A stretch of DNA of 64,000 bases from Candidatus Magasanikiibacteriota bacterium. GTDB lineage: Bacteria > Patescibacteriota > Patescibacteriia > Magasanikbacterales > UBA922. Both the position numbers and the translations under genes were made by a program. This document shows positions 2,039 to 51,687 of the stretch, one piece after another. The notes beneath the pieces are model-generated. The model was not told the origin of the DNA. It searched no databases and saw nothing but the letters and a program-made list of their open reading frames with translations. Each line of letters begins with the position of its first letter. Positions within the stretch are counted from its first letter, which is position 1. Location of the stretch: the NCBI GenBank assembly GCA_014729395.1, contig WJJZ01000001.1, positions 3,634 through 67,633 on the forward strand. The letters run 5' to 3'.

Positions 2039-3238
2039 TTATTGAGTACTAGTAGTCGTTGTGGTAACTTCAGGCTGCGGAATAATTTGAACTTGTTCCG
2101 GAATTTCTATATCTGTGTCTGACGGTCGAAAGCTTTGCATTATCATTTGCATTATATGTCGATAAGGAGCGGTAGCGGTAGTTCCGGGTTGATAAATAAT
2201 TACAAATACATAGTTGTCAGTTTCAAAATAAGCAACCAGATCATCATCGCGTCTATAGCCATCTTCCTGAAATCTATTTTCAAATTCAATCAAATCGCTA
2301 AAATTTTGTCCTTCCGCATTTCTACCAAACCATGCTCTAAAATTTTCTGTTGCTAATTTTTGAATTACACGAACCTCTACATAATCACCGGTAAAAGCAC
2401 TAAACAGAACTTGCTCATATTCATTATCAACCACACCGACTTGCCATACGGATGGATAATACAGTCTGTACTGCCATCTGGGATTTACATATTCTCTAAC
2501 CAATCCCGAATCAATTAACTTTGTCGGCGCAAAACCGATCGGACTGTATAAATTAAAGACTTCCTGTCCATCATAATACCCGTCTTCATCAGTATCCCAA
2601 ACAGATATTTCAGTATTAAAGACTTCCTCTTCCATGTCGGAAAGCGAATCTTCATCCGAGTCCGATGAATCAGTATAAGTCGACTGAGGGAAAGATAAAG
2701 CTTGAACCTCAAGTGATGGGGTTGTGGTAGGTACTTCCTCTGCTACACTTTGGGTAGAGGTCGCTTCTATAACCTCCTCCTCTTCTTCCTCTTCCGCTTC
2801 GGTTTCCTCCTCTGTTGTCTCTTCAACCGTTTCTGCAGGAGTAGTTTCAGTTTCCGTTTCTGATTGTCCACCGATAAAACCACTGCTATATAAATAATAT
2901 AAAACTATAGCCACTATACCAATAATTATTATAACCGCAAAAAGTAATACAAGTTTCAGATTGCTCTTTTTTCCGGGACCCGGTTTTGGAATTTTAGTCG
3001 TCTGGGGAGTAGGTGTCTGTTTTTTCTGTATTTGTTTTTCCTTTATGTTTTCGGTTGGTACTTTTTTTTCCAATGAAGCCGGTTCAGACTTTTTTTTCAA
3101 TTTTTTTTCCGCCACAGGAGATTTCTCATGATAAATTTCCGGATCAGCACCACCATAAAAAATATCCGGAATTGTCTTTATATTATAAGTATTCCCTTTA
3201 TTTTTATCATTTGATTCTGTTTTTTTACTGCCTAACAT
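2039..3238 (-). CDS. hypothetical single-pass membrane protein with Lys-rich N-terminus, E/T-rich acidic linker and C-terminal globular domain
   Basis: 399-aa ORF. TM segment LVLLFAVIIIIGIVAIVLYYLY. Acidic run ETETETTPAETVEETTEEETEAEEEEEEEV. Motif WDTDEDGYYDGQEV is related to the Ca-binding motif of the two upstream small proteins. Confidence 0.5.
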   Translation of the reverse strand: MLGSKKTESNDKNKGNTYNIKTIPDIFYGGADPEIYHEKSPVAEKKLKKKSEPASLEKKVPTENIKEKQIQKKQTPTPQTTKIPKPGPGKKSNLKLVLLFAVIIIIGIVAIVLYYLYSSGFIGGQSETETETTPAETVEETTEEETEAEEEEEEEVIEATSTQSVAEEVPTTTPSLEVQALSFPQSTYTDSSDSDEDSLSDMEEEVFNTEISVWDTDEDGYYDGQEVFNLYSPIGFAPTKLIDSGLVREYVNPRWQYRLYYPSVWQVGVVDNEYEQVLFSAFTGDYVEVRVIQKLATENFRAWFGRNAEGQNFSDLIEFENRFQEDGYRRDDDLVAYFETDNYVFVIIYQPGTTATAPYRHIMQMIMQSFRPSDTDIEIPEQVQIIPQPEVTTTTTSTQ

Positions 3239-3251
3239 ATTTTTTTATTTA

Positions 3252-4223
3252 TTATTGTTGGGTTGTTGTTGGTGGTTCAAACAATTTACCTTCTCCGGCC
3301 GGATTATAACCCGCTTTTATTTCTTCTCCGTCCAAATAACCATCACCATCTGAATCGGGATTCAAAGGATCAGTATTCCAAATTAAAACCTCGTCTCCAT
3401 CACTAACGCCATCATTATCCGTGTCTCTTTTATTGGGATCGGTTCCATAACTGGCCTCGCGATCATCATCCAATCTGTCGTTATCGGAATCAACCGGTTC
3501 GCCAAATAATAACTCATCATCTGCCATATCTTCTTCAACCTCATTTATTTGCTCAAGGTCTTCGGTATCAGTACTGCCGGTTGCCGGAATTACCGGTTCT
3601 TCAATCTCAAAACTCTCTTCTACTTGAGTGTTATCCGTTTCCATGTCTGTTTGTTCTTCCGTAGTAAAAATGTCGTCTTGCTCATCCACTTGAATAAACC
3701 TAACATAGACCAGCCAACCGCCACCGCCAATAATTAACAATACCACAACTGTGATAATAACTGCCATTAGTCCTTTACTCAAAACCGGTTCTTTCACAAC
3801 ATATGGTTGACTTTCTTCAGTACCGGCGGGTGTTTGCATACCGGCCCCGGGTGCTTGACCCGATCCTGAAGGTGCTGCAACAGACGGCGGAGAAGCAGGT
3901 GTCTGCGGAGGAGTCTGAATTTTTTGTTCTGGCATTTTCGGACTTGTATTAGTGCTCGGTGGCCGTGCTTTATTTGTATCAATCGGACTTGTTTCCGGAA
4001 CATCGTCCTTTGCTTTCATAACACCGGCTCCCAGAGCTGAAGGAACTTGTGCACTAGCTGAATTATCTTTATCACTTTGTTTTATATCCGGATTAGCCGG
4101 TTGATTTACGTTGTTTTGGGGAGCAGAATCATCTGTTCCGGAAAACATATCTTCAGGTTCACCCACAGGTAAATTACCGGGTACCTGGCCACCTGTATTT
4201 GGAATTGGTTTATCATCAAACAT
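3252..4223 (-). CDS. hypothetical Pro-rich single-pass membrane protein with thrombospondin-type-3-like Ca-binding repeats
   Basis: 323 aa. TM segment LMAVIITVVVLLIIGGGGWLV. C-terminal DTDNDGVSDGDEVLIWNTDPLNPDSDGDGYLDGEEIKAGYNPAG carries DxDxDG repeats. Confidence 0.55.
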   Translation of the reverse strand: MFDDKPIPNTGGQVPGNLPVGEPEDMFSGTDDSAPQNNVNQPANPDIKQSDKDNSASAQVPSALGAGVMKAKDDVPETSPIDTNKARPPSTNTSPKMPEQKIQTPPQTPASPPSVAAPSGSGQAPGAGMQTPAGTEESQPYVVKEPVLSKGLMAVIITVVVLLIIGGGGWLVYVRFIQVDEQDDIFTTEEQTDMETDNTQVEESFEIEEPVIPATGSTDTEDLEQINEVEEDMADDELLFGEPVDSDNDRLDDDREASYGTDPNKRDTDNDGVSDGDEVLIWNTDPLNPDSDGDGYLDGEEIKAGYNPAGEGKLFEPPTTTQQ

Positions 4224-4308
4224 AGTTTGGAATTTAAAATTTTGAATTTAGAATATAGAATCCAGACATTTTTCCAGATTCTAAATTCTATATTCCAGAT
4301 TCTAAATT
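4224..4308. repeat. AT-rich intergenic direct/inverted repeat cluster (AGATTCTAAATTCTATA units)
   Basis: GAATTTAGAATATAGAATCCAGA ... CCAGATTCTAAATTCTATATTCCAGATTCTAAATTCTATA. The unit is present twice directly, plus an inverted variant. Lies between two paralogous small genes. Confidence 0.5.
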
Positions 4309-4707
4309 CTATAAATCCCCTGCCCCTGCCGGGTTATATCCTTTTAAAACTTCCCAACCATCAGAGTAGCCATCACCGTCACTATCGACATTTTTGGGAT
4401 CTGTCTGCCAAACGTCTAACTCGGCCACATCACTCAAACCGTCACCATCTGAATCGTATTCCGTATCACTCGTACCCATAGCCGCCTCTTCTTCATCACT
4501 AATCCCATCTCTATCTTGATCACCGGGAGACAAATCAGGCTCCAAATTTTGCTGCTCCGGTTCTTGTGTTTCTTCTGTCTGAGTTTCGTCGACCGGCTGA
4601 TCCACCTTACTTCTCCGTATGAAAAAAGTCACAAAAAAAACCATTATTGCAGCTATTAGTATTAAACCTATTGTAATTAATATTTTTTTCATATTTATGG
4701 TGTACAA
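4309..4707 (-). CDS. small single-pass membrane protein with thrombospondin-type-3-like Ca-binding repeats (paralog of 3252-4223 C-terminus)
   Basis: 132 aa. TM segment ILITIGLILIAAIMVFFVTFFI. DSDGDGLSDVAELDVWQTDPKNVDSDGDGYSDGWEVLKGYNPAG is near-identical in motif to the 3252-4223 protein. An alternative start at the second Met (4692) would remove the overlap with the giant gene. Confidence 0.55.
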   Translation of the reverse strand: MYTINMKKILITIGLILIAAIMVFFVTFFIRRSKVDQPVDETQTEETQEPEQQNLEPDLSPGDQDRDGISDEEEAAMGTSDTEYDSDGDGLSDVAELDVWQTDPKNVDSDGDGYSDGWEVLKGYNPAGAGDL

Positions 4708-7700
4708 ATAGTATTGGGGGTATCATTTAAAACATCACAAAAACCGGTTTGAATTTGCTGAACAGGACTAATTCTCCAATCAAATTCCAAATTTTCCGAT
4801 TTCCATTCAAGATTGAATACATGCCAGTATCTTGCCGTTGGGTTGGATGATGACTGTGCACTCTTTATTGAAAAACTAGTAATCGGTTTGTAAACGGAGT
4901 GAGCTGGTACTTGTCCTTCGTGAAAAGTGTAAATATCCACAGTTAAATTGCTGTTTGTAAAATTGCTGATTGGTACCTCTCCCAAACTACCAATAGCTTC
5001 AACAAAAAACGCAATAGGTGGTCTCACTTCAAAAGTCCTGTTCAGATAATACCAACCATTGGTATCGATAGTCATGGCTTGAATAAACGTCTTGTCCAAA
5101 CTTTGAACCGGGTGTACAAAAAGCAATCTTGATTGATCACGTGTAAAATCATCACTTGGTCTGATAACTGTATATGGATTACATGCTGTTGGCCAGAAAT
5201 ATCTACCATGATTAAATTCTGTAGAATTATATTCAGCTTCTTCCTTATATGTAGTTTGCTCCATCTGATCGCAATACCATGGATCGGCGGGATTGGTGGT
5301 ATCGGAAATCGCTTCACTTAGATTCTTTATAAGAGCCTTTCTTTCTTCCAGATCTTCGGCGTTTTTGTCAAAAATCTGACTATACAAAACACCGTTAAAA
5401 ATTACATTACGATCATCTTCTTTATCTGTCCAACGCACAACCACCCTGAATACATTGTCAGGAACTGCCGGAGAAACGATATATTCGTGTTCAATCGGCC
5501 CTGTTTGTCCGCTAACCGGATAGCTGAAAAGGTCGCCGTAGTTTAATAATTGATCGCGATTATAGATATTTAGATTTACTGCGGGAGATTTTTTAATCTC
5601 AAGCGGTGAAAAATATAATTTATACTCATCAACACACAAAGCGTCGCTCTCAAGCCTAACCTTTTCACCGGATAAATTTTCACTACTACCTGAATTCCTA
5701 AGTGCTTCTTGAATTGTGTAGTCAAAATATATTGGAGTGCTGCCATTGCCGGTTGATCCCAATCTGCGCCAGCCAAAAGTATACCCGTCTTCAATACCAT
5801 CTCTGTCCGGGTCATACCAACGATACATCAAAACATGTTGGAGTCCGTCAAAATTTCTTTCCGGAAAAGCCCACCAATTTGTTCCTTCACCAAGAGTACT
5901 TTGCGGAACGCCACCACCTGTAATCGGATTTAGAAAGGCCATATTGGCAATGGTATTTATATTTTGATCCAAGCTGGCTGTACACTCAACGCAATTATTA
6001 TCCAATTTCTGACAACTTTCGCTACAGCTCACACTCCCCAAATCAGTACAGGTTAAGACATTGTTCTCATTACACAATGTATAGTTTGGTAAACATTCAC
6101 CATAAAATTGGACATCGTTTGTTATGTAATTCGATATATTATTACTATAATCCTCCTCTTTTAAGTCCAAGATCAAACCATCATCAGGAGCAAGGCAAGT
6201 TGTTTGGTCATTTGGGTCACAGATAATACTCGGATCCTCTGAACAGTGATAACCCAACATGTCTTCTAAATCCGCTTCTGAAGATAAATGGACAAGTGAC
6301 AGAACAAGCAGTTTGCAAGCAATCACTTTTGGATCGTCAAGATCTTCATCCAGCCAACTACAGATCGCATTCATATTATCTTCCGAATTTTCGAGCATTT
6401 CAGGATAGTACTGAACCCTAACCTTTCCATCGTTTAGTCTTCTGACAAAACTCGGGGCTACAGTCTGTGAACATACTTCGTCAGACACGATAATGTTTTC
6501 CCCAACAGTTTCACATTTTTCTCCATTTTCAGCTTGAACAATACCATCACCACAATAAGCGGTCGGTTCTCTAAACAATACATTTCTACAATCAGCCGAA
6601 CAATATGTACAATTTTGTCCATATTCAGGCTGACACGGAATACCATTCTGTGAGCCCAGATCACAAGCTTCCATTACCCCTTCGTTGTTTGGAGCCTGAA
6701 CCACATTATCACCACATGCACCGATATTTTCCGCTTCCACCCCTTGTTGAACAGGTCCTTCATATACACCCTCGCATTCTACCCTGTAACCATTGGAATT
6801 GGTAATATTTAGCTCAACACTGCATGAGTTATTACAATCATACCCACTACCATAACACCTGGTATAATAAACCAAAATATTAAATTCATCCAATTTACCG
6901 TATCGCTCCAAAACCTGATCACATGAAAGTCCATAACTGTGACAAATTTGATTACCGGTAATATTGCTTGTACATTCCGGGATAGCTTGACCCTCATAGT
7001 CCCCACTGGAACTGTCAAACACGTCGTAATTTCCTCTACTTATGTAAATATCGGTTGAATTATCTGCTGTAGAAGTTGTTAGATAAGGGCCTGCATTGTA
7101 ACAAGAATTATTCTCTCTTTCGCACTGCTCACTACAACCATCAAAATTATCTAGGTTGCCATCGTCACAGGTTTCATAATCAGGCTGGACTAAATTGTCT
7201 CCACAGTATCCACCATAACCTTGACAATCAATTGAGCAAGATTTTTCCATTTCAAAAGCATATTGCCCCCAAAGAGGTCTCATAGACCAATCACAAAACT
7301 CATATTCTTCTTGAAAAACTGTATCTCCGCAATAACCAAGTCCGGACAAAGCATTACAATCTTCACCACAATGACCATAAGAACCGTTTAATTCCCCATC
7401 ATCACACAACTCTCCTTGATCAACCACTCCGTTGCCGCAAATACCAACACCGGGGCATTCTGTTGGTTGCCAAGTGCACTGATCCGTACATATTCGACAA
7501 TTAGCCGCATCAACACGTCCGGGTGGATCACAGCTCTCACCTGCATTGACCACAGAATCACCGCACACCCCTCCTTCGGGAGTATGAGTTTGATTTGGCA
7601 CACAATATGGCTCTGTATCAAATCTACCCCTATTGATACCATATCTGTCTATTATAGAGTTATTTAAGCTTAAAAATTCAAGCGGGGCATGGAAAATATA

Positions 7701-10700
7701 ATTTTCATTTGATTCGTATTCATATTCATAGACGCTCATTTCTTGGGGGCATATATATTTTGATTGTTCTGCATTCCAGCATGTGTTCACCTCAACATTT
7801 GGATCAACAGCTTCACAACCGGTCCACTGATTGACCGGGTCAACCGCTACACCCTGTATATCCGAACCCAATCGATTACCCCAAGAAGGCCATTTTGATA
7901 CGGTATAACCGGGTATAAAAGTACCGGAAGATAAAAATGGATAGGTTCCGTTTTGACTTCGATATATATCCAAATTTCTTTGTGCGCCGGAAATATCCTC
8001 CAAACGATCCAAATCTCTTAAAAATTCAGTCCTGTCAGCATTACACTCCATATCAATCAAACCTGCATCCTGATCCTCGCATTGTGGTGGAACTGAATTA
8101 TCTTTTATACAACGGATATAACTACCATAATCCCCTTCAAGAGAAAGTCTATGTATCGTCGGAATATTTGAAACGAATTTTCTTACCCAATTACCCACCA
8201 AACTAGAACGTGAACTCCAATAAAAAGATATTGCCGGATTACCAAATAAACCACTTAAATCCGTAAAGCCGTTTGCAACAGCGTTAAAATTGGAAGCACC
8301 TCCGACTTTTAGTAATTCACCTTGATTGGTTCCTCTAAATCCAACGTCATCGGAACATAACTCACCCTCCGGACCCGGACCCAAGCCTTCACACATTCCC
8401 TCTTGTTCTTCTAATATTTTCCACTCTTCATCTGTCGGAATATGCCAGCCAACTGGACAAATCCCGCGACTTCCGGATATATTTGAATAATTCATTGACT
8501 CATCCCATCTGTACAATCCACCAAAATTGTTACAATTTGTTTCATTATTTTCCAAGCAATATTTTTCTATAATGTTGTTATCTGTCTGAGCTTGCGAAGA
8601 GTTAATCATGGTTCCAATATTAATATTTTCAGCCATCCAACATTGGCTTCCAATTTGGAGTGTACCGTACGATTGACCTTGATAATCAAGTTGATCACCG
8701 CAAGTAAATTCAGGAGGACATTCTATTGTTTGCTCCACCTCCATACTCGGACAATCGAAATCATTTAAACAAAACCCAGCCGGATCACCACCATCTACAG
8801 GTGTACAATAACGCAGGTCACTCATGTTTGTATTAAATTTCAAAGAATTAATCAATTGTTCAAACACCTGTCTTGTTTCTTGTGAAGCATTAATATTTAT
8901 ACTGAATAGATAAACATTTCTGTAAATAGTTGAATCTCCGGTTGCCTCCTCACCGGTCAAATTATATGCATTTATATAAAAGTTGTTATCATCAGCCAAA
9001 CCCTGGTAGCCGTCCACTTCAACTCGACGCATATTGTCAACATTTTCAAATCCTTTTGAACTGTACCATTCATTAATATTTAAAAAGTCCGGGTTGGAAA
9101 AAATTTGCACCCCGATAACATCATCATTTTTGTCATTGAAAAATAAAACTTGTTTTTGTGTATCCTCTGCCAATTCAATTTCTTGATCAATGTCAACAGG
9201 TCTGATAAAGGGCAAATCATCGAATGTCACACCGGATACCCCTGCATCCAAACAATAACTCATTGTGAAATAATAACCCTCCCTCTCAAAAACATCATAG
9301 GGACGCCACAGATCCCCCATCCTTTCCGGCCATGGTTTTTCACAAAACATAGCCGTCAAATCAAATAAGTCCGTAAATATAAGGCCGGTCTGATTATTTT
9401 GTGAATCAATATCAACAGTAATTTTCGCACTTAAAACTCCTGTTTCATACCCTTCAACCTCTCGAGATGCAATGTTCACAGTCTCCGCATTTGAATTATC
9501 ACCTTCTACAGGTATTGAAAAAACCCGGGAATCATTTGGTCCCCATGCCCATTCCCAATAATAGACACCGGGTATTCTAACGATTTCCTGTTCTATACCG
9601 GTTGGAGTTTCACTAATTGCCATAGCTATAAAATTGTATTCTTGTTGCGGAGCGTAAAATAAATGACTATCAGGCACAGCTTCAACCGCTTTAAGTTTAC
9701 AAATATCACTCCCGGTTCTAAATTGCCAAGCGTCGGAAATATTTGAATTTTCCGGATTTTTAATACCCACACCTCTTGTATCTCTTATTCCATCACCGCC
9801 GCCTGTAAGCAAAACCGCATAGGTTGTCTCGGGATCAAGTAAATCTTCTAAATATATCGAAACCGTACTGCTTCCAACCGTTCCGTCGGGCAAATAAGAA
9901 TAGCTAACTTCCGGTCTGGTACTAATAGCACCACTGCACCAAGTTTCGATTGCCGCATAGCTTTCATCACCGAAAAATTCTAAAAAGAAATTTTTAACTC
10001 GATGCCATAATCTAGCAAAAAAACTATCAGACTGATTATACGCCAAGGCTCCGTTTACAACACCTGTTACGTTTTGTTGGCCTTGTTCAGTACAATCAAA
10101 ATCTTGATCATCGGAACCACTTGCAATTATTAAATTTCCCGACAAGGTGTCATCGTCAATTTCACCATCAAAAGTAACACTGATCAAAGAGTTACGACAA
10201 ATAGAATTGGATCCGGACTCCGGATATTCATCAATCCTGGAAAGTCTCTCAAAACAACACGAATTTTCCGCCACACCATATATGTTATCGCTATTATCAG
10301 CGCAATCATTATACAAACCATCTCTTGGAGAATCATATTCGGTATAACCACATTGCAAATAATAATCAGCGTCTCCGACAACAGTGCCTGCCGGAAGATT
10401 TATTGGTGTAGTGGAAGTTCGCTGCATTACAGCTTCTGCTTCAATTTTTGCAAATTGCCTTAAAGTTTCTTCGTCTACCACACCTTCACCGATTGCCGTT
10501 GCCACCTGAATAGGATTTAAACCTGCCTGTAAATTTGCATCTAAAACTTCCAATTCACAATCGGAGCTTTCGCCTATTCCGACAACAGCATCACCACAAA
10601 GAGATGATTCCGAATAAGATACTGAGGATCCGGCCAAGGTGCATTCTTCCGTACAACCTTCAACTCCGGAATCACACTGACTAAACGGAGTGTCACATAC

Positions 10701-13700
10701 ATTAATAAATAAACAACGATCATTACAATTATTATCCGTTATTCCATTTATACCTATTTCGCACTGTTCCCCATCTTCAAGTACACCATTACCACAAACA
10801 CTGACTGCATTTAGACACTCAACACTACCTGAAAAAGCTGAATTACTACACCATGCTTGAGACAAAGGTGTACCCGTATGAAGACAAGAGTTTGAGCACC
10901 CATATTCACCGGTCAAAGACAGATCGCCGGCAAAAGAGGCATCATCCAAACTTATACCGATATCACAATCCTCACCTACTGTTACATCTCTGCTGCCGCA
11001 CCATGGTAAATCCAAATTTCCCTGGGGCTCCGCTGTACTGGATCCGCTCCAAGTACAATTATTATTACAAAACTCATTGAGTGCCGGATCACATTCTTCA
11101 CCCAAAGCGGTTTCTATTTCAGCATTTCCACAATTTTCACCTGTCGAACCCGGGCGCAAACAGTTTAGAGTACAGGACTTACCAACTTCTTCGCCTATTT
11201 TTGCTATGTCGCAATCTTCTCCGGGGTCAAGCACACCATTTCCGCACAAGAAAGGATCTCTTGTATAACTGTCTCTTTGTATATCCGATCCGGAAGGTAC
11301 GCAACCCAAATTACAAAATGAATTCGGATTCCCTTGAAGTGTAAAATCCGATAAATCGACAACCGATTCATCCAAACTGCGCCAATCCCAACCATAGTTC
11401 CAAGGGTTTAATTCTTGTCCATAGGGATTACAGGTATCCGGCGACCCATAAGAAAAAGCGCTATAGCGAGTTTTTTCTCCAATTACATTTGACACATGTG
11501 GATTGGGTTGTAGTCGAATATCGTTTATTTGACAATAGACATTGTCGGATTTTGTTCTAAATTTCCATGAAAAATCATCCGGCAAGGCTTTGCCGTCTCT
11601 TTGCTCGGGTTCAAACTGGCCAATCGATACAATCCCGGTTTGCCCTCCTCTTACCGTGACTTTATACCATGAATCTTTTTCCAAAACTTGGAGTGGTAAT
11701 AAATATGAATGCAGTTCGAAATAATTTTGATTATCAGCCGGAACATCCAAAGCTATCTCCGTCTCATCAACTTCGTTACACAACTCATCACTACATTTTT
11801 GCAAATAAATATTATTCTGGTATGTTTCCGGATTCATATGTCTACTGAACCGAACTCCGAAACCGGTATTTATACAGGCCTCTGCACAATCAGGCCAAAA
11901 ATCCACAACTTCAGGTTCTTGTAAATCAATTATCAATGTACTGGAAGCAATAATTTGATTCTCTACCAACACCCCTCCGGTAGTGGTGGAAATATCGGTC
12001 TGAGCTATAATTTGAACACTATCAGGTGCGGTATGAGCTTTTGCATCGCCTTTTGCTTTTGTGTCAGTATGATATTCATCAGACTCAACCTGAATTGTAG
12101 CAGCGGAATTATTATCCGTGGTCCAATCCCAACCGAGTCCATCCACGGGCAATACCGAACACTCTTGATTTCCTCGTCCCCATAAATAATAGTAAAAAGG
12201 AAGCTCGCCAAGAATTTCAGTAATATATTCCGGAGGGTTCATACCGGCTGCAGTTAAAGTACACAATTCACCACCGGTTTTAAAGTCAAAACAATAAGCC
12301 GTACCATCACCACAAGGTCTAGTTATCTGTAAAGGTTGTGACGGTACCTCGGCTACACCAAGGACGCTTTGTTGTGGTAGTGATCTGATCCCCTCAAGTA
12401 ATTCTACATGATACCAAGTATTAGGCTCCAGATTCTCGGTTGTCGACAATCTTATTACTTCCTCTTCATAATTTAAATTAATATCTTCAATCGCCACACT
12501 GTTTTCTTCGCAATCTATTTCTTCACCATTGCCACAACTGTATAGAAGCACATTATCCGTAAAAGAATTCTGATCCATAGGCAATGTGAACCTGACTGCA
12601 ATTTCTGAATTCAAACATGCTTGCCTACCTTTTCTCCATCTTTCCCAAGGTGTTGGTGACGGAAATTCCAATTGCAAGTCGGTATCAAACCAATCATCTT
12701 CTTCACAAGCTTCAACCACTTGAGGCACCTGAGGCATATAGCCTGTGGTAAAACGCCAAGTATATCCGGCAGATCGCACCTCACCCTTACAAGCGGTTCC
12801 AACCGGTCTCCATATTCCCGCATCTTCTCCGACCGTACAACATTTGTGAGTTTCTGAAATTGGTGAATCAGGATTTTCCCTACAATCTTCAACAGTATAT
12901 TGCACTCCATTACTTAAAATAGTTTGACCGTCTACTTCTATACCAACTCTGATCGGACCGGTCTCCATTGAATAATTATCATTTGTCTCCGGTATTAAAG
13001 TTATTATTTGATTATTTGAAGCGGAAATTAACCAATCACCGGGTGTCAAAGTTGAAAGCCAAGTATTGCTTACTTCTTGGACATTGGCATCTTTCCACCA
13101 AAAATATACAACCGGTGAAGTACCAAAGTTAATGCCGGTTATATCCAGACCTTCACTACCAACCGGCAAAGGCGCAGGACCGGTATTTGGACTGAGCCTA
13201 CATATACTTGGCAAAGCGGCACCATCTTCTACTGTTAGTGCCTCGACACCGTCAGTTTGTGCCAATACACCATCTACATTTACCGATAAATAATATGTTC
13301 CGACTGCGGTTTCTTCACCTATCTTTACCACTATTTGTTCATCACTCCAAGTATCACCGCAAACTGCCGGCAATATTGTTTCCGTGGGAATACAATTTTC
13401 ATCATTGCAAGCAATACCGGCTGTATCTGCCAAATGTACAGTTCCTGGATTTTGTCCCAAATTTCTTCCATATATGGTTAGATAACTGCCCGGTGTAATT
13501 ACCGTTGGACTTATGGATTCAACGACCGGTTCAGTGTCAGTGTCACCATCACCCAAAACTGTAAAAGGAATACCATTGCTTAAAACATCATTGACTGAAA
13601 CTTTTACAGCCACTTCTCCGGGGTTTAAACTTTCGGGAACAGAACTGTCAATGGAATTATCTGACCAAGCCGACACCTGTGATCTAAAATTTCCGAATTG

Positions 13701-15533
13701 GATAAAATTGTTTCCTTGATCACCCCCAAAAGCACTCCCCAAAGCCAATATTTCTGTCCCGGGCAAAGCAAAATCAACCGGCACTTCAGGAGATTGCACT
13801 TTTGTTTTAACACTACAAAGACCCGGTCTTGAAATGTCATTTTTTAAAAATAAACCATTTCTCGGACCATTGATCGGACCATTATTATTTATAGTTGTGT
13901 CAATCAATAAATCACCATTCATAGGAGCGCTTACCCGTATAGCGCTTTCAGACCCAAGCGGCAACCGATTGTCATCAGGAACCGCAACCACTATCCAATC
14001 GTTTGTCCACACTTGTGTATCACCGCAATCAGCCAAATTGGCTTCAACCCAATCATCACCAACAGAAAACTCAACCGTACCGATAACAGATCCAAAATTT
14101 CTACCCAAAACGGTAACAAAATTATTTGACGCCCCCTCCCACGGATCAACGTCAAGAATTACAGGTAAGTCCACACATTGATTGGTCTCAGGATCACAAA
14201 AACCTGATGCGCAATCCGAGTCATCAATACAATCATCACCACCCTGCCCCAAACATTCGTCCTCATATTCGGGTGATATTGGCCTACCGGAAGCGTCGCA
14301 ATGCTCACCCACAATCACAAAAGAACTCGTATCAACTGAAAAATTATGATCAATATCATAACCGACAGCTTCAACTATAAATCTCTGTCTCGCTTCTGTG
14401 GTAGTCGGAATCGTATATGAGTATTCAAAGCTGTATGAATCAGAGGAATCATCTGATAATCTCGGACCATCATATAGCGTTAAACCGTTGTCGGGTGTAG
14501 AATCTTCTTTGTAAATTTGAACTCTTATAAAAGAATTGCCAAAATTATCATTCATTTCCACTTCTATGGGGTAAGACCGACCTCTTCGCAAAACAACACC
14601 GTCATTGATATCATTATTGATCGAAATTTCTCCCATAACGGGATTATCGATATCTATATTATTGTCAGTATCAACTCCAAAAATCGCGGTCCTTGGATAA
14701 GTTCCGCAACTGGTATCAATTTCCAAAGGATTGCCCGATTCGTCGATGACATCTTGATTTACTTCAACTCTATAAGCACCGGAGCTAAAACAGGTTTCTT
14801 GTCTTTCAGCTGAACATAACTCATCAGTGTCATATGTCGCTTCGACAATGGATCTATTGCCGTCAACATAAACAGCATCAATAGCTTGAACATCTGTACC
14901 ATCCTTTAATACTTCAAAAACATCTGAAGCGGCAACGGTTCCATCTAATTCACGGCTGAAAATGACACGAACAGCAATATTATTCATTTCCAAAGAAGCT
15001 GTATTCGGAGTAATGCTTTTTACTACAAAATGTCTGTCTTCACAATTAGGAAAATCCCCTCCTCCACAAATATCCGGGTGTAAATTGTAAAAATTTGGAT
15101 CACTACATCTGGGATCTACTGTTTCTCCACCCGGTGTAGTTGTGAAACCGGTGGCATCAGATAATCTATTTAGAACGAACTGAGTAATAGCAAATGATGA
15201 TAAAATAATTGCCAAACCAATAGCACCATTAATTAAAATCTTTTTGGCAGTACTGATTTTCTCTTCATTACCCCCTGAAGTCATAAAAACAAAACCACCG
15301 TACAAAACGATCAAAACTGCAATAATCCCTAAAAATGTCAAAATAGCCCTGATAATTTTTGCAATTGTTATTCTAATGTCTTGTGATCCCAAAGCTATAT
15401 TCTCTTCAACTTCAGTTATTCCCAGTGTATCAGCTTGGGCATTTACCGTCTGAGCGACTGCAAAAAAACCGCCAAATATGACAAGCAATAAGAGAAAAAT
15501 AATAATATTTTTTTTCAATTTTTTTACGGTCAT
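4695..15533 (-). CDS. giant (3612 aa) secreted/membrane-anchored multidomain surface protein: N-terminal signal-anchor plus 2-TM module, about nine Myxococcus-type cysteine-rich repeats (CGNGxxxxGExCD), IPT/TIG-like and Ig-like domains, and a Fibrobacter-succinogenes-major-paralogous (FISUMP-like) domain
   Basis: Single uninterrupted ORF. Cys-rich repeats include CGNGVLDPGEDCD, CGNGVLEDGEQCE, CGDSVVNAGESCD, CGNGVVDQGELCDDGELN, CGDNLVQPDYETCDDGNLD, CGDNVVQAPNNEGVMEACD and CGDGIVQAENGEKCE. FISUMP-like segment is GGLYRWDESMNY...CPVGWHIPTDEEWKILE. TIG-like segments resemble ISPTVITPGSYLTIYGRNLG. Ig-like strands follow the IAVRFTLPMDQNSF pattern. Confidence 0.85.
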   Translation of the reverse strand: MTVKKLKKNIIIFLLLLVIFGGFFAVAQTVNAQADTLGITEVEENIALGSQDIRITIAKIIRAILTFLGIIAVLIVLYGGFVFMTSGGNEEKISTAKKILINGAIGLAIILSSFAITQFVLNRLSDATGFTTTPGGETVDPRCSDPNFYNLHPDICGGGDFPNCEDRHFVVKSITPNTASLEMNNIAVRVIFSRELDGTVAASDVFEVLKDGTDVQAIDAVYVDGNRSIVEATYDTDELCSAERQETCFSSGAYRVEVNQDVIDESGNPLEIDTSCGTYPRTAIFGVDTDNNIDIDNPVMGEISINNDINDGVVLRRGRSYPIEVEMNDNFGNSFIRVQIYKEDSTPDNGLTLYDGPRLSDDSSDSYSFEYSYTIPTTTEARQRFIVEAVGYDIDHNFSVDTSSFVIVGEHCDASGRPISPEYEDECLGQGGDDCIDDSDCASGFCDPETNQCVDLPVILDVDPWEGASNNFVTVLGRNFGSVIGTVEFSVGDDWVEANLADCGDTQVWTNDWIVVAVPDDNRLPLGSESAIRVSAPMNGDLLIDTTINNNGPINGPRNGLFLKNDISRPGLCSVKTKVQSPEVPVDFALPGTEILALGSAFGGDQGNNFIQFGNFRSQVSAWSDNSIDSSVPESLNPGEVAVKVSVNDVLSNGIPFTVLGDGDTDTEPVVESISPTVITPGSYLTIYGRNLGQNPGTVHLADTAGIACNDENCIPTETILPAVCGDTWSDEQIVVKIGEETAVGTYYLSVNVDGVLAQTDGVEALTVEDGAALPSICRLSPNTGPAPLPVGSEGLDITGINFGTSPVVYFWWKDANVQEVSNTWLSTLTPGDWLISASNNQIITLIPETNDNYSMETGPIRVGIEVDGQTILSNGVQYTVEDCRENPDSPISETHKCCTVGEDAGIWRPVGTACKGEVRSAGYTWRFTTGYMPQVPQVVEACEEDDWFDTDLQLEFPSPTPWERWRKGRQACLNSEIAVRFTLPMDQNSFTDNVLLYSCGNGEEIDCEENSVAIEDINLNYEEEVIRLSTTENLEPNTWYHVELLEGIRSLPQQSVLGVAEVPSQPLQITRPCGDGTAYCFDFKTGGELCTLTAAGMNPPEYITEILGELPFYYYLWGRGNQECSVLPVDGLGWDWTTDNNSAATIQVESDEYHTDTKAKGDAKAHTAPDSVQIIAQTDISTTTGGVLVENQIIASSTLIIDLQEPEVVDFWPDCAEACINTGFGVRFSRHMNPETYQNNIYLQKCSDELCNEVDETEIALDVPADNQNYFELHSYLLPLQVLEKDSWYKVTVRGGQTGIVSIGQFEPEQRDGKALPDDFSWKFRTKSDNVYCQINDIRLQPNPHVSNVIGEKTRYSAFSYGSPDTCNPYGQELNPWNYGWDWRSLDESVVDLSDFTLQGNPNSFCNLGCVPSGSDIQRDSYTRDPFLCGNGVLDPGEDCDIAKIGEEVGKSCTLNCLRPGSTGENCGNAEIETALGEECDPALNEFCNNNCTWSGSSTAEPQGNLDLPWCGSRDVTVGEDCDIGISLDDASFAGDLSLTGEYGCSNSCLHTGTPLSQAWCSNSAFSGSVECLNAVSVCGNGVLEDGEQCEIGINGITDNNCNDRCLFINVCDTPFSQCDSGVEGCTEECTLAGSSVSYSESSLCGDAVVGIGESSDCELEVLDANLQAGLNPIQVATAIGEGVVDEETLRQFAKIEAEAVMQRTSTTPINLPAGTVVGDADYYLQCGYTEYDSPRDGLYNDCADNSDNIYGVAENSCCFERLSRIDEYPESGSNSICRNSLISVTFDGEIDDDTLSGNLIIASGSDDQDFDCTEQGQQNVTGVVNGALAYNQSDSFFARLWHRVKNFFLEFFGDESYAAIETWCSGAISTRPEVSYSYLPDGTVGSSTVSIYLEDLLDPETTYAVLLTGGGDGIRDTRGVGIKNPENSNISDAWQFRTGSDICKLKAVEAVPDSHLFYAPQQEYNFIAMAISETPTGIEQEIVRIPGVYYWEWAWGPNDSRVFSIPVEGDNSNAETVNIASREVEGYETGVLSAKITVDIDSQNNQTGLIFTDLFDLTAMFCEKPWPERMGDLWRPYDVFEREGYYFTMSYCLDAGVSGVTFDDLPFIRPVDIDQEIELAEDTQKQVLFFNDKNDDVIGVQIFSNPDFLNINEWYSSKGFENVDNMRRVEVDGYQGLADDNNFYINAYNLTGEEATGDSTIYRNVYLFSININASQETRQVFEQLINSLKFNTNMSDLRYCTPVDGGDPAGFCLNDFDCPSMEVEQTIECPPEFTCGDQLDYQGQSYGTLQIGSQCWMAENINIGTMINSSQAQTDNNIIEKYCLENNETNCNNFGGLYRWDESMNYSNISGSRGICPVGWHIPTDEEWKILEEQEGMCEGLGPGPEGELCSDDVGFRGTNQGELLKVGGASNFNAVANGFTDLSGLFGNPAISFYWSSRSSLVGNWVRKFVSNIPTIHRLSLEGDYGSYIRCIKDNSVPPQCEDQDAGLIDMECNADRTEFLRDLDRLEDISGAQRNLDIYRSQNGTYPFLSSGTFIPGYTVSKWPSWGNRLGSDIQGVAVDPVNQWTGCEAVDPNVEVNTCWNAEQSKYICPQEMSVYEYEYESNENYIFHAPLEFLSLNNSIIDRYGINRGRFDTEPYCVPNQTHTPEGGVCGDSVVNAGESCDPPGRVDAANCRICTDQCTWQPTECPGVGICGNGVVDQGELCDDGELNGSYGHCGEDCNALSGLGYCGDTVFQEEYEFCDWSMRPLWGQYAFEMEKSCSIDCQGYGGYCGDNLVQPDYETCDDGNLDNFDGCSEQCERENNSCYNAGPYLTTSTADNSTDIYISRGNYDVFDSSSGDYEGQAIPECTSNITGNQICHSYGLSCDQVLERYGKLDEFNILVYYTRCYGSGYDCNNSCSVELNITNSNGYRVECEGVYEGPVQQGVEAENIGACGDNVVQAPNNEGVMEACDLGSQNGIPCQPEYGQNCTYCSADCRNVLFREPTAYCGDGIVQAENGEKCETVGENIIVSDEVCSQTVAPSFVRRLNDGKVRVQYYPEMLENSEDNMNAICSWLDEDLDDPKVIACKLLVLSLVHLSSEADLEDMLGYHCSEDPSIICDPNDQTTCLAPDDGLILDLKEEDYSNNISNYITNDVQFYGECLPNYTLCNENNVLTCTDLGSVSCSESCQKLDNNCVECTASLDQNINTIANMAFLNPITGGGVPQSTLGEGTNWWAFPERNFDGLQHVLMYRWYDPDRDGIEDGYTFGWRRLGSTGNGSTPIYFDYTIQEALRNSGSSENLSGEKVRLESDALCVDEYKLYFSPLEIKKSPAVNLNIYNRDQLLNYGDLFSYPVSGQTGPIEHEYIVSPAVPDNVFRVVVRWTDKEDDRNVIFNGVLYSQIFDKNAEDLEERKALIKNLSEAISDTTNPADPWYCDQMEQTTYKEEAEYNSTEFNHGRYFWPTACNPYTVIRPSDDFTRDQSRLLFVHPVQSLDKTFIQAMTIDTNGWYYLNRTFEVRPPIAFFVEAIGSLGEVPISNFTNSNLTVDIYTFHEGQVPAHSVYKPITSFSIKSAQSSSNPTARYWHVFNLEWKSENLEFDWRISPVQQIQTGFCDVLNDTPNTICTP

Positions 15534-15548
15534 CAGATTAATTAAAAT

Positions 15549-17585
15549 TTATGGCACTAAACTTCTAAGGTAGTCCAAACATTGTTCATTGTCAGGTACA
15601 ACACTTGCACCTTCATCCATAGTTTGAGCACAACCCGTATCATTTTCTTCGTCAAAACTGACATTTACACAATTTACAGTCTCAATAATATTCCCAAATT
15701 CATCTTCTACCACTTGACATTCGTTCATTTCGGCCGGTCCTCTTCCCGGGTATAGACATTGTTGGTTAAGAGATTTCACTGTACTCGGTATCGTTGGAAA
15801 ATAGAATAAATCCAAATTGTTGGCACCAAATTCACGGTGGGTTATATATAAATCACTTCCCCCGTCTTCTGTAATCTCCGTATAAGTGTGAAACCATATA
15901 TCATCCAAGCACTCATCCGGATCGTCCGGCAAACAGTAATTTGCCGGATATTCTTCTAAAACTACATCCGAAAACGTACTTGACCACATTTCTTTGTTAA
16001 AGTGAACAATAATAGGTGTATTAGCCGGTACGTTTTCTGCGTCAACCGGCGGAGTGATTTCACTAATGAATGGGATTGATCTATCTATGTTATTTTGGAC
16101 AATAAAACGCCAAAGATAATTATCCGCTTCTTGTTCTTCTCCGGATATTTCTCTATTATCGGGTACATTCGGCTTTCCATCGACCACACCATCAGCATTT
16201 CCGTCCAATGCATTTCCCGCCATATCCATAACTCCGGAAAAAGGTACGGCTTCGAACGAGTCCTCTGAATAGATTTGTGCAGTTCTAATTAAAGCCAAAT
16301 AAAAATTCAAGCATTCACTATCGTTTACAGCACAGTCAAATATAGGCAGACAATACATTGCATCTCCACAACTATTTGTACCGCACTGTTCTGCTGAAAC
16401 AAATTCAACTGTTTTATAACTATTGGTTAACGACCATTTACCTGCCGGAAGATCTTGGGAATTTTCAGCCGCATCCAATATTATATTTGTAAAATTTTCA
16501 GTTAAACCCTGAACCGCTGTAGGATCCATAGCTTCACTAAAATCAATTCTAATGATACTGTTTCTGGAAACAGTTCTTTCGTTTCTAGGATAAACCCGTG
16601 ATACTGTCGGAGGATCAAAATCAATGTTTGAACCTGTTTCAAATTCCCATAAATAGTGACCGCTTCTCTCATTTACAAAAGCACTTGTTTCTCCATCTTC
16701 AATTAAAATATTCTCAGTCAGATCCACACTATACCAAGTATCCGGTTCCAGCATTTCCAAAGGACGTAAAACAAAAGTATATGTACTGCTGGCATCTCCT
16801 TCATAAGAAGCCATAGCCGCGGCCGGCAATAATTCAACCGTTCCCGTGGTTGAACGATAAAGTCTGACAGCATTTTGATTTAATTGGTCACAATCAAGCG
16901 ACCAATCCAATATACCATCGTCCGGAACAATACAATCTCCAATAATTCCATTTTGATTGCTATCTTCAATTAAACTGCTGGCGTCAATCGCTTCTCTGAA
17001 TGTAAAAGCGATTTTGGTATTTCTTTTTACATCTGTTTGATTGCGTTCGGGATAATGATCTTTAACGATTCTACCGAGAGAACCACTACCGGAAAAAGTA
17101 TTAAAAGCAGGCCTGGTAATACCGCCTCCTCCTCCGGGAAAAGCTCCCGTAGCCCTCTGCAGACTGCTTAATACAAATTGAGTTATGGCAAAAGCCGACA
17201 AAATAATCGCAAGACCAATAGCACCGTTTATTAGTAATTTTTTACCACGCGCCACCTTTTCTTCATTTCCGGCCGAAGTCATTATTGTAAAACCCGCATA
17301 TATAACAATAATAAGAGCTATTATTCCCAAAAATCCTAAAACTGCTCTTATAATCCTGGCTATTATTATTCGAATATCACCTCCACCCAGGTTTAAACCG
17401 CTCTCGTCAACAATCTCCACCCCCAAAGCATCCCCTTCTGTCTGAGCGTTCACAATATCAAAATTTACAACAAAAAAAGTAAATATTAATAAAAAAATAC
17501 CTACTATCAAAACTATAGCAGTAATTTTCCTATTTTTATTAAATTGTCGAATCCGATAAGGTAGCATGGAAACCTCAGGACTCAT
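15549..17585 (-). CDS. large (678 aa) secreted/membrane-anchored protein with the same N-terminal signal-anchor plus 2-TM module as the giant protein, followed by bacterial Ig-like domains
   Basis: The N-terminal ~160 aa align with the giant protein N-terminus (DIRIIIARIIRAVLGFLGIIALIIVIYAGF...MTSAGNEEK...KKLLINGAIGLAIILSAFAITQFVL). Ig-like pattern IIRIDFSEAMDPTAV. Confidence 0.75.
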   Translation of the reverse strand: MSPEVSMLPYRIRQFNKNRKITAIVLIVGIFLLIFTFFVVNFDIVNAQTEGDALGVEIVDESGLNLGGGDIRIIIARIIRAVLGFLGIIALIIVIYAGFTIMTSAGNEEKVARGKKLLINGAIGLAIILSAFAITQFVLSSLQRATGAFPGGGGGITRPAFNTFSGSGSLGRIVKDHYPERNQTDVKRNTKIAFTFREAIDASSLIEDSNQNGIIGDCIVPDDGILDWSLDCDQLNQNAVRLYRSTTGTVELLPAAAMASYEGDASSTYTFVLRPLEMLEPDTWYSVDLTENILIEDGETSAFVNERSGHYLWEFETGSNIDFDPPTVSRVYPRNERTVSRNSIIRIDFSEAMDPTAVQGLTENFTNIILDAAENSQDLPAGKWSLTNSYKTVEFVSAEQCGTNSCGDAMYCLPIFDCAVNDSECLNFYLALIRTAQIYSEDSFEAVPFSGVMDMAGNALDGNADGVVDGKPNVPDNREISGEEQEADNYLWRFIVQNNIDRSIPFISEITPPVDAENVPANTPIIVHFNKEMWSSTFSDVVLEEYPANYCLPDDPDECLDDIWFHTYTEITEDGGSDLYITHREFGANNLDLFYFPTIPSTVKSLNQQCLYPGRGPAEMNECQVVEDEFGNIIETVNCVNVSFDEENDTGCAQTMDEGASVVPDNEQCLDYLRSLVP

Positions 17586-17622: not shown

Positions 17623-18072
17623 TTATTTGTTTTCTATTTTTTTCATTACAATCTCTCGAACAACAGATCCGTCAGCTGATGAACCAATCTTACTCATGAC
17701 CGCGCCCATTACCGGGCCCGGACTTAAGCTATCTTCACTTTTCATTTTTTCAATTTCTTCATCAACTATTTTTTCTATTTGCTCAGAACTTATCTGCTTA
17801 GGTAGATATTCTGACAAAAAATCAATTTCTTTTTCTGTTTTTGCAGCCAAATCAGCTCTGTCGCCTGATTTAAAATCAACAAGTGAATCTTTAAGTTGTT
17901 TCACTTGCTTTTTAGCTACTTTTTCCACATCTTTATCATCTAAAGATTCTTTCTTGTCAATCTCTTCATTTCTAATGGCCGACCAAAACATCCTTAAAGT
18001 GGATAACTTGTCATTATCCCCTTTCTTTAGGGCTGATTTAATATCAGCTTGTATTTTTTCTCTTAAAGTCAT
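17623..18072 (-). CDS. yqeY: GatB/YqeY domain protein
   Basis: 149 aa with YqeY-like sequence (REKIQADIKSALKKGD...LSTLRM...EYLPKQISSEQIEKIVDE...GPVMGAVMSKIGSSADG). Classic rpsU-yqeY pairing. Confidence 0.8.
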   Translation of the reverse strand: MTLREKIQADIKSALKKGDNDKLSTLRMFWSAIRNEEIDKKESLDDKDVEKVAKKQVKQLKDSLVDFKSGDRADLAAKTEKEIDFLSEYLPKQISSEQIEKIVDEEIEKMKSEDSLSPGPVMGAVMSKIGSSADGSVVREIVMKKIENK

Positions 18073-18075
18073 GGT

Positions 18076-18312
18076 TTATCTGGTAAATTTATCTTCTTCA
18101 GGAAGTTTACCAATTTTACGCAAATAATTGGTTTTACTAATTATCTGTCCTCTTTTTACCGCCTCTTTCTTCTTCATATTCTTACTTTTCTTTGGATCGT
18201 AAAATTGAATTTTCCTAGCTTGTAGTAACTTACCGGATTGAAGCCAGCGCTTTTTAACTCTACGCATAAAGACTTCAAAAGACTCTCCTTTTCTTCTTTT
18301 TACTTCTGACAC
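18076..18312 (-). CDS. rpsU: 30S ribosomal protein S21
   Basis: KRRKGESFEVFMRRVKKRW...KKEAVKR is typical of S21. Probable GTG start at 18312 preceded by AGGAGG. The ORF track extends to 18321. Confidence 0.8.
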   Translation of the reverse strand: MSEVKRRKGESFEVFMRRVKKRWLQSGKLLQARKIQFYDPKKSKNMKKKEAVKRGQIISKTNYLRKIGKLPEEDKFTR

Positions 18313-18415
18313 AAATTTCACCTCCTCGTGAAAAATTATTCGATTTATTAAAAATATTTCTGGTCTATTTGACCACCAAATATTGCCTAAATTATAAAAG
18401 ATTTTTTCGATTCAG

Positions 18416-31912: not shown

Positions 31913-32178
31913 TTTCTTTCTCCTTGGGCTTACCCCTTTGGGCTTACCCTGCTTTGGTCGAGAGAAATCCCCAACCTTCATTTGAATAACAATATTTTGT
32001 TAGTCAAAAGAAAGCAAGGAAAATCTATAACTAAAGAACAAATTTAACGCTTAATTATGGCATAAAAGTGCTAATTTGTCAAGCTACTTTATAATAATCA
32101 AAAATAAAAAATAGCTAAATTTAGCCATTTTTAATAACCAATCAGAATAAAATCCTGCGAACTGATCACTGTGAACTG

Positions 32179-51610: not shown

Positions 51611-51687
51611 AAAAACCAGGTCTATTCCCTCTATATAAAAATATAGAGTCAACGGAAATATCTGCCTTCCGACAGAATAACTCCAGA

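Follow-up and report, generated by a model that had tools for sequence, protein, structure and literature searches.

A conserved five-gene block of Candidatus Magasanikbacteria encoding two proteins with VirB2-like pilin modules and three small membrane proteins, a candidate pilin-anchored surface complex

The locus described here lies in a window of 64 kb (the whole stretch of DNA that was analysed) from a Candidatus Magasanikbacteria genome, a lineage of the Patescibacteria, also called the candidate phyla radiation (CPR), and consists of five consecutive open reading frames (ORFs) on the minus strand. These are named A to E, A being the furthest upstream and E the furthest downstream (Table 1). 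Magasanikbacteria are placed in GTDB class ABY1 in Table S1 of PMC12102498. Based on family searches, structure models and the comparison of related loci, A–E are proposed, with moderate confidence, to be a conserved operon for a pilin-anchored surface complex whose probable role is contact with a host or a substrate. A preliminary description of the same DNA had called the five ORFs at coordinates that were recovered exactly, and its remark on tight spacing also holds, the gaps being 15 nt between A and B, 2 nt between B and C (counting C from the ATG at 4692), 85 nt between C and D, 13 nt between D and E, and 2 nt between E and ybeY. Pfam searches agreed that ybeY, dgkA and ftsA follow on the same strand, and all five products are predicted envelope proteins, possessing a signal peptide or transmembrane (TM) segments and ectodomains that are either Cys-rich or acidic and of the Ca-binding type. 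What had been overlooked is a signal peptide and a two-helix T4SS_pilin module at the start of both A and B.

Table 1. Positions of the genes, domains and neighbouring features in the window; residue numbers refer to the respective protein
Feature	Position	Strand	Description
Gene A	15549–17585	−	678 aa; signal peptide, VirB2-like pilin hairpin, 3–4 immunoglobulin (Ig)-like (Big_5) domains, 12 conserved Cys
Pilin hairpin of A	17148–17384	−	Residues 68–146; two TM helices, loop TSAGNEEKVARGKK
Gene B	4695–15533	−	3,612 aa, 142 Cys; signal peptide, VirB2-like pilin hairpin, giant multidomain ectodomain
Signal peptide of B			Residues 1–33
Pilin hairpin of B	15150–15386	−	Residues ~50–128; T4SS_pilin match at residues 56–120, 29.7 bits
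DUF4625-like Ig domain of B			Residues ~288–380
IPT/TIG repeats of B	12894–14156	−	Residues ~460–880; Pfam TIG 8.8e-18, two stretches and a weaker third
Big_5 Ig-like domain of B	12375–12617	−	Residues 973–1053
First Cys-rich repeat block of B	10434–11336	−	Residues ~1400–1700; CGNG-x-[LV]-[DE]-x-GE-x-CD type, acidic; from Cys density map
Fib_succ_major (FISUMP) domain of B	8103–8657	−	Residues 2293–2477; Pfam 9.1e-24, TIGR02145 1.8e-24
Second Cys-rich repeat block of B	5934–7736	−	Residues ~2600–3200; DUF4215 1e-4, TIGR02232 4.8e-7
C-terminal region of B	4698–5933	−	Residues ~3200–3612; no Pfam match; conserved in the giants of loci L001, L002 and L004
Gene C	4309–4692	−	127 aa from ATG (132 aa from TTG at 4707); N-terminal TM helix, three thrombospondin type 3 (TSP3) repeats
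Gene D	3252–4223	−	323 aa; N-terminal peptide, low-complexity cytoplasmic region, one TM helix, acidic linker, three TSP3 repeats
Gene E	2039–3238	−	399 aa; N-terminal peptide, Lys-rich cytoplasmic region, one TM helix, acidic linker
Gene E, C-terminal part	2039–3238	−	1–2 TSP3-like repeats, then PsbP-like domain
PsbP/Mog1/DcrB-like domain of E	2114–2503	−	Residues 246–375
yqeY (upstream neighbour)	17623–18072	−	Pfam YqeY 9.7e-38; position kept in 6/6 loci
S21-like ORF	18076–18321	−	81 aa, GTG start, between hisS and yqeY
ybeY (downstream neighbour)	1587–2036	−	
dgkA (downstream neighbour)	1244–1609	−	
ftsA (downstream neighbour)	1–1208	−	Cut off by the window edge

The N-termini of A and B are built alike. 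By hydropathy, a hydrophobic signal peptide is followed by a short variable segment and by two long hydrophobic helices that are joined by a Lys-rich loop (TS.GNEEK...KK). Both proteins match the Pfam family T4SS_pilin (PF18895) of type IV secretion system (T4SS) pilins, A with 27.2 bits and B with 27.1–29.7 bits, which is above the cut-off of 26.6 by a small margin, and both match the NCBIfam model of the Mbov_0395 pilin-like protein, a conjugal transfer protein of a mycoplasma integrative and conjugative element, with 38.4 and 30.7 bits, respectively, below its cut-off of 40. The AlphaFold2 model of A contains helices at residues 12–40, 71–102 and 108–146, of which the last two form the hairpin. 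The class III signal peptide, N-methylation motif and single α1 helix of type IV pilins are absent from A and B in Pfam and NCBIfam searches. The N-terminal modules of A and B share 63% identity over 118 aa and the hairpins alone 72%, and the remainder of the two proteins shows only weak similarity of the Big_5 type. Within one genome the hairpins of A and B are 69–78% identical, and between genomes A–A or B–B hairpins are 64–81% identical and ectodomains 38–48%. In the A family, the mean frequency of the top residue is 0.71 in the hairpin, 0.55 in the ectodomain and 0.29 in the signal-peptide region, and the entropy is 1.15 bits in the hairpin versus 1.89 in the ectodomain. Residues A47-Q48, where cleavage is predicted, are nearly invariant, as is the loop TS.GNEEK..GKK. 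Because the hairpin is the most conserved segment whereas the signal peptide reaches only 0.29, a role as passive anchor is argued against, and the maintenance of one hairpin sequence in both A and B would be expected if the hairpins contact each other or one common partner. From this pattern of conservation, we infer that the hairpins are not passive anchors.

The module is by no means restricted to this locus. A profile search with the module of A and B retrieved 33,991 cluster representatives among 1.84 billion proteins, 8,494 of them at E ≤ 1e-10, and the best 150 of the 33,991 include 50 giants of 3,000–5,008 aa and 52 proteins of 500–900 aa; this distribution, too, speaks against a merely passive anchor. 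The same profile retrieves the poly-pilin P0146 (606 aa), in which seven tandem hairpins lie in one chain (seven copies of PF18895, 159 bits) together with a match to TrbC/VirB2 (PF04956) at 1e-14. The latter match ties the module of A and B to classical VirB2, and the presence of seven hairpins in one chain suggests that the module can work side by side within the membrane. Further single-chain poly-pilins with 6–8 tandem VirB2-like hairpins were encountered outside the window (P0148, P0154, P0169, P0228 and P0258); poly-pilins could be pilin polyprotein precursors or membrane-embedded hairpin bundles.

Membership in this family raises the possibility that A and B are strict modular VirB2-type pilins, which would be extracted by a T4SS encoded elsewhere and become minor or tip subunits of a T4SS pilus, thereby presenting the Ig rod or the giant ectodomain to a host in the manner of PilB of Streptococcus sanguinis. 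F-type and T-type pili have pilins with both ends turned outward, which would topologically permit a C-terminal extension. The strong conservation of the hairpin including its loop likewise suggests interaction with a machine or with lipid. PF18895 is the Pfam family used to detect the T4SS pilins of Patescibacteria (PMC12102498), a pilin array is essential in Southlakia (PMC10633639, PMC12857230), VirB4 is marked as present for two Magasanikbacteria genomes in Table S1 of PMC12102498, and modular pilins are established for type IV pili (PMC8179133). On the other hand, ~530 residues in A and ~3,480 in B follow the hairpin, so that the mature form is not a hairpin alone with a free or cyclised C-terminus, as in canonical VirB2-type pilins, and the extension far exceeds those known for such pilins. 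Furthermore, neither VirB4, VirB6, VirD4 nor any other type IV secretion gene, and no sortase or pilus-assembly gene, was found among the ~35 ORFs of the window scanned with Pfam, which lie outside the ribosomal-protein cluster at ~39–49 kb; the conserved neighbours are housekeeping genes in all loci, and the flanks in six other genomes likewise consist of housekeeping genes. The seven-hairpin poly-pilins suggest that the module can work embedded in the membrane, and a T4SS pilus is as yet unseen in any Patescibacterium (PMC12857230). Pilus display is considered unlikely.

The preliminary description of A as an Ig-like protein was borne out by a Pfam match to Big_5 at 2.3e-18. The AlphaFold2 model of A, for which 84 homologues were used (mean predicted local distance difference test score, pLDDT, 88; predicted template modelling score 0.77), comprises the hairpin followed by a rod of 3–4 Ig-like domains, and the predicted N-out/C-out topology of the hairpin would place this ectodomain outside the cell. 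Its 12 Cys residues are invariant or near-invariant across the family. The top Foldseek matches in the PDB, the surface-layer (S-layer) protein SbsC and the Ig-like domains of LdtMt2, are generic matches to Ig repeats (query TM-score 0.14 for SbsC), and no PDB match by sequence was obtained for the A profile or for B. The A family has at least 500 members, the top 120 of which cover 87–100% of the query at 40–67% identity (the 100% self-match excluded). Nearly all of these 120 carry PF18895 and PF13205, and most of those with a named source come from Magasanikbacteria or Patescibacteria. Some homologues of A are already annotated as "pilin", and the architecture is thus visible in the databases.

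B was correctly described as Cys-rich, its 142 Cys making up 3.9% of the residues, and it has no C-terminal anchor. Weaker Big_5-like stretches near residues 1206–1303 and 1770–1940 accompany the Big_5 domain in Table 1, and the Big_5 stretches of B also align with the ectodomain of A. The first Cys-rich block gave only sub-threshold Pfam matches (Attractin, E 0.007–0.024). Orthologues of B are 57% identical over ~3,050 aa in locus L002 and 38% over ~2,290 aa plus the C-terminus in locus L001; this orthology was established from the DNA of the loci, as a homologue search with the middle third of B gave only truncated giants of up to 2,057 aa. The insert modules of the orthologous giants vary. 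FISUMP is present in the window and in L002 and missing from L001, faint BNR/sortilin-like matches occur in the giant of L086 (12129–22100 of that locus), and LVIVD repeats occur in that of L087 (12426–22415). These comparisons of sequences point to a conserved giant scaffold that carries variable, presumed binding modules. The C-terminal region of B also contains a lone TSP3-like motif, DPDRDGIEDG, at residue 3241 (~5784–5813, minus strand), of the type found in C, D and E.

The three small proteins had been called paralogous on the strength of a shared W-x-TDP-x-N-x-DSDGDGY motif. This stands for C and D, which contain the motif, carry three TSP3_bac repeats each (PF18884; 61.3 bits and E 7e-17 for C, 62.2 bits and E 4e-17 for D, cut-off 25) and are 54% identical over the 72 aa of the repeat region. 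It does not stand for E, which lacks this motif, has no Pfam TSP3 match, possesses only one exact D-x-D-x-D-G-x-x-D motif with a degenerate one upstream, reaches a pairwise E-value of only 0.001 with D and ends in a PsbP-like domain. The ORF of C at 4309–4707 was confirmed, its start being most likely the ATG at 4692, two bases past the stop of B, rather than the TTG at 4707. The best NCBIfam matches of C and D are CglD and MtsD, in the repeat region only and with 28 and 22 bits against cut-offs of 400 and 800. The preliminary description had also allowed for ordinary OmpA-type anchors; at E ≤ 0.01, Pfam and NCBIfam returned neither OmpA nor any other peptidoglycan-binding family for these three small proteins. 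Given the known chemistry of thrombospondin type 3 repeats, the repeats of C, D and E would be expected to bind Ca2+.

The C-terminal domain of E, which has no family match at the sequence level in Pfam, was assigned by structure. Its model was built from only seven sequences, with a block-mean pLDDT of mostly ~65–90 and a dip near residues 351–360, and Foldseek retrieved BT_1490 (3hlz), CyanoP (2xb3 and 2lnj), Mog1p (1eq6) and 1v2b with a probability of 1.0, E-values of 1e-4 to 3e-3 and target TM-scores of 0.33–0.54. The PsbP/Mog1/DcrB fold typically serves protein–protein interaction or assembly. Matches of E to IcmG/DotF (20 bits against 200) and VirB10 (17 against 400) were rejected as compositional, arising from Lys/Pro/Glu-rich low-complexity sequence, and those to CrgA and DUF7261 in Pfam fell below threshold.

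Alignments of 43 C, 50 D and 63 E orthologues revealed that the N-terminal peptides of D (consensus MFDDq......g.vP.NLP.gEPeDiF) and E (MFg.kkk...iP..FYGgkDPviy) are sharply conserved ahead of otherwise unconserved low-complexity cytoplasmic regions. By their sequences, these peptides may be docking motifs for a cytoplasmic partner. The vPxNLP core of D presumably recalls the INLLP peptide of PilN that binds the FtsA-like protein PilM.

The five genes proved to be conserved as a unit, and the scattering of homologues in related genomes, which the preliminary description had envisaged as a possible outcome, was not seen, because the genes co-localise in all loci that could be judged. The order (S21-like)-yqeY-A-B-C-D-E-ybeY-dgkA-ftsA-ftsZ is kept in every related locus long enough to judge. 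At the upstream end, A and B are adjacent in 6/6 genomes within the arrangement lepB-hisS-(S21-like)-yqeY-A-giant, and the giants, of 3,395–3,781 aa, likewise start with T4SS_pilin. At the downstream end, a metagenome DNA scan with the E alignment found 107 relatives (a word-indexed search with the C-terminal half of E gave only 6), and 80 of these loci were fetched for ORF calling and subsequent blastp. The ~45 loci that reach the giant contain, all on one strand, the giant, a small TSP3 protein (123–187 aa in most), D (241–466 aa), E (340–457 aa), ybeY and dgkA. ftsA follows dgkA in 49 of 49 loci, with ftsZ next in 43 of 44. The same order was found in two loci of a genome collection, both detected by a scan with the C-terminus of the giant. 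Order and orientation hold down to ~34% identity for E and for B, and for every gene from A to E dozens of other contigs supply one-to-one orthologues, identically arranged, so the five-gene arrangement is not due to chance. Judging from these comparisons, the A–E genes are apparently single-copy and vertically inherited. Some metagenome-assembled genomes with this Magasanikbacteria-type locus are labelled "uncultured Gammaproteobacteria" (L003/L004: CAYSPW01, CAZMHV01) or "Candidatus Kapabacteria" (P0042), which probably reflects mis-assigned taxonomy or mis-binned contigs.

These data bear directly on the notion that A–E are functionally unrelated envelope proteins, made neighbours by historical accident, with the hairpin as a generic CPR membrane anchor. 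The module does head tens of thousands of proteins of very different lengths, and an interaction among A–E is only putative. Yet order and orientation are kept in all loci at identities as low as those given above, the intergenic gaps are very short, and the hairpin is conserved more than any other segment, far more than the signal peptide, which is not expected of a passive anchor. Mere accident is therefore very improbable.

A structural envelope layer, either S-layer-like or a scaffold of the wall zone, which is coupled to growth and division instead of serving host contact, would account for other features of the locus. In such a layer A and B would form an outer lattice, Ca2+ bound by C, D and E would provide cross-links, and the peptides of D and E would dock onto the divisome (FtsA/FtsZ). 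The block is invariably linked to ybeY-dgkA-ftsA-ftsZ, the apparent single copy and vertical inheritance of the genes fit such a role, and so do the sharply conserved peptides of D and E beside unconserved cytoplasmic regions. The presumed resemblance of the D peptide to the PilM-binding peptide of PilN would fit it as well. S-layers commonly depend on Ca2+, and SbsC is among the closest structural matches of the A ectodomain. However, the SbsC match reflects the generic Ig-like repeat at its low query TM-score, SLH (S-layer homology) and other known S-layer anchoring or lattice domains were not detected with Pfam, and B, at its length and with its variable FISUMP, LVIVD and BNR inserts, resembles a binding protein more than a lattice subunit. 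The segment rpsU-yqeY ... ybeY-dgkA is an old housekeeping cluster familiar from Firmicutes. The A–E block appears to sit inside this old cluster, and the adjacency to ftsA may merely reflect insertion there. Overall, a purely structural layer seems rather improbable.

The favoured explanation, a pilin-anchored surface complex for contact, can be put together as follows. Sec would export A and B, and signal peptidase I would cleave them at the conserved V-x-A|Q site, after which the VirB2/TrbC-type hairpin would insert in the cytoplasmic membrane so that its two ends face outward and its Lys-rich loop faces the cytoplasm. An Ig-like rod (A) and a disulfide-rich ectodomain of ~3,480 residues (B) would then project from the cell. 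Given that the two hairpins are almost interchangeable and have diverged less than the ectodomains, they probably pack in the manner of pilin subunits, either against one another or against a common partner. C, D and E would be single-pass proteins with the N-terminus inside and the C-terminus outside, whose extracellular TSP3 repeats could bind Ca2+, with E adding a PsbP-like and putatively protein-binding domain. They may organise or tether the A and B ectodomains at the membrane surface, and D and E could, through their cytoplasmic N-terminal peptides, connect the complex with a partner inside the cell. Such a complex, a conserved scaffold with lineage-variable binding modules, would most likely let the bacterium touch or adhere to a host cell or a substrate. 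The five genes are probably co-transcribed.

Several points weigh against this proposal. The analysis yields gene structure, domain content, predicted folds, conservation and synteny, and it is from these that localisation, export, cleavage, topology, Ca2+ binding, complex formation, co-transcription and function are deduced; the positive-inside rule leaves the topology of C ambiguous; and no ligand-binding or catalytic site was identified in A–E. Vertical inheritance, one-to-one orthology along the giant and placement among yqeY/ybeY-dgkA-ftsA-ftsZ fit a housekeeping role in the envelope or in division at least equally well, and the strict conservation of A–E counts in the same direction, since a host-specific adhesin is usually more variable. 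As for co-transcription, promoter and terminator scans performed no better than on shuffled sequence, and the gap between C and D (4224–4308, minus strand) contains an RNA hairpin of −30.7 kcal/mol (z = −6.7 against shuffles), made of a duplicated tagaatttagaatctggaa unit and followed by an A/U-rich tail. This hairpin could be an intra-operon attenuator or an element of mRNA stability; it is not kept elsewhere, the median C–D gap in other loci being 26 nt. The preliminary suggestion of a dedicated surface structure is a reasonable hypothesis, and its example of an attachment organelle of an episymbiont is plausible; a structural envelope role is equally possible, given that the block sits in a housekeeping and cell-division cluster and is vertically inherited.

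A bolder version, which is speculative and unlikely, holds that the hairpins of A and B polymerise, via a T4SS or alone, into a filament or lattice that shows a 3,500-residue adhesin and is wired by the D and E peptides to FtsA/FtsZ. If true, a monoderm would possess a host-contact organelle derived from a T4SS, the first case of a "modular conjugative-type pilin", and the wiring to FtsA/FtsZ would tie the building or inheritance of this organelle to division.

The Patescibacteria make up a very large share of bacterial diversity, most of it uncultivated, and their cultivated members live attached to host cells. Host contact in the CPR is known in outline only for Saccharibacteria, which employ type IV pili, some adhesins and a T4SS that is essential and includes an array of VirB2-like pilins. 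In the present locus, from a different CPR lineage, this pilin module forms the N-terminal carrier of very large predicted surface proteins, and the module heads at least tens of giants of 3,000–5,000 residues in public data. The A–E unit is as conserved as the neighbouring cell-division genes and takes up ~1% of a genome of ~1 Mb. The hairpin may either only anchor A and B or load them onto a T4SS pilus. If it is a true assembly module, A and B would be concrete candidate cargo for the T4SS and pilins of Patescibacteria; if it is an anchor only, it would represent a widespread, CPR-specific tethering of surface proteins, beside lipoproteins and sortase substrates.

The surroundings of the block are housekeeping in character. 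Upstream lie lepB, hisS, the 81-aa S21-like ORF and yqeY, downstream lie ybeY, dgkA and ftsA, and ~30 further ORFs of the window scanned with Pfam encode S12, S7, EF-G, EF-Tu, SecY, Adk, SMC, ClpP, TrmD and others. The S21-like ORF resembles ribosomal protein S21 (KRRKGESFEVFMRRVKKR...) yet has no Pfam match, and an unannotated ORF of 66–83 aa occupies the same place in loci L001, L002, L085, L086 and L087. The top sigma-70-like promoter match of the region (11 of 12 positions, 18419–18391) lies just upstream of the S21-like ORF in the window. Two other minus-strand ORFs, at 27664–28941 (425 aa) and 31424–31981 (185 aa), had no Pfam match at E ≤ 0.01. The RNA genes of the window are one 16S ribosomal RNA (rRNA) gene and four transfer RNA genes. 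The 16S rRNA gene is complete (51687–53181, minus strand) with EF-Tu ~1.2 kb downstream, and 23S and 5S rRNA genes were not found in the window, the rRNA genes thus being apparently unlinked, at least on this side. The GC content of the block is 0.38–0.42 versus 0.35–0.37 in the flanks, with equal strand skew; on these values and on the conserved synteny, horizontal transfer of the block was rejected. A phage origin was rejected because PHROGs gave no matches, as was a defence system, PADLOC yielding only weak low-complexity matches to PD-T4-6 (16–19 bits).

The earlier statement that the locus cannot be matched to a described system was too strong, since A and B start with modules of a pilin family, VirB2-like, that is known from the Patescibacteria T4SS (PMC12102498, PMC10633639) and the grafting of functional modules onto pilins is established for type IV pili (PMC8179133). 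The literature search, which left most subscription journals outside its coverage, returned no description of VirB2-type modules fused to large ectodomains or of the A–E operon. VirB2-like pilins were reported in 1,948 Patescibacteria assemblies, near virB4 in 1,135 of the 1,948 and often in arrays of 2–11 genes with an average identity of 25% within arrays (PMC12102498). A and B share with these pilins (PF18895/PF04956) the Pfam family, the signal peptide with a two-helix hairpin, the phylum and the occurrence as tandem paralogues. Unlike them, A has 530 and B 3,480 residues beyond the hairpin, both genes lie in a housekeeping context, and the two hairpins are ~72% identical. The modular type IV pilins PilB and PilC of Streptococcus sanguinis resemble A and B in joining an N-terminal pilin carrier to a grafted C-terminal module, a design that is frequent in CPR genomes (PMC8179133). 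In contrast, type IV pilins belong to another superfamily with a class III signal peptide, a single α1 helix and the type IV pilus machinery, whereas A and B possess the VirB2/TrbC two-helix hairpin; B also has 3,612 residues, compared with 860 for the largest modular type IV pilin cited (PMC8179133). Giant adhesins and S-layer proteins, such as SiiE, the 7,651-residue adhesin of Mobiluncus and SbsC, are similarly very large, rich in Ig repeats and cell-projecting. They are anchored or exported by type I secretion with a retention module, by an LPXTG motif and sortase, or by SLH domains; A and B instead have an N-terminal VirB2-like hairpin and no C-terminal anchor, and B is rich in Cys repeats of the disulfide type. 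C and D share the Ca2+-binding TSP3 repeat (PF18884) with CglD and MtsD of Myxococcus. Unlike those proteins, they are tiny single-pass proteins with no other domain, scoring far below the family cut-offs. Finally, the C-terminal domain of E is predicted to adopt the α–β sandwich of PsbP, Mog1 and DcrB (DUF1795, Eag chaperone) and differs from the PsbP family in its fusion partners, which are a TM helix, an acidic linker and a TSP3-like repeat.

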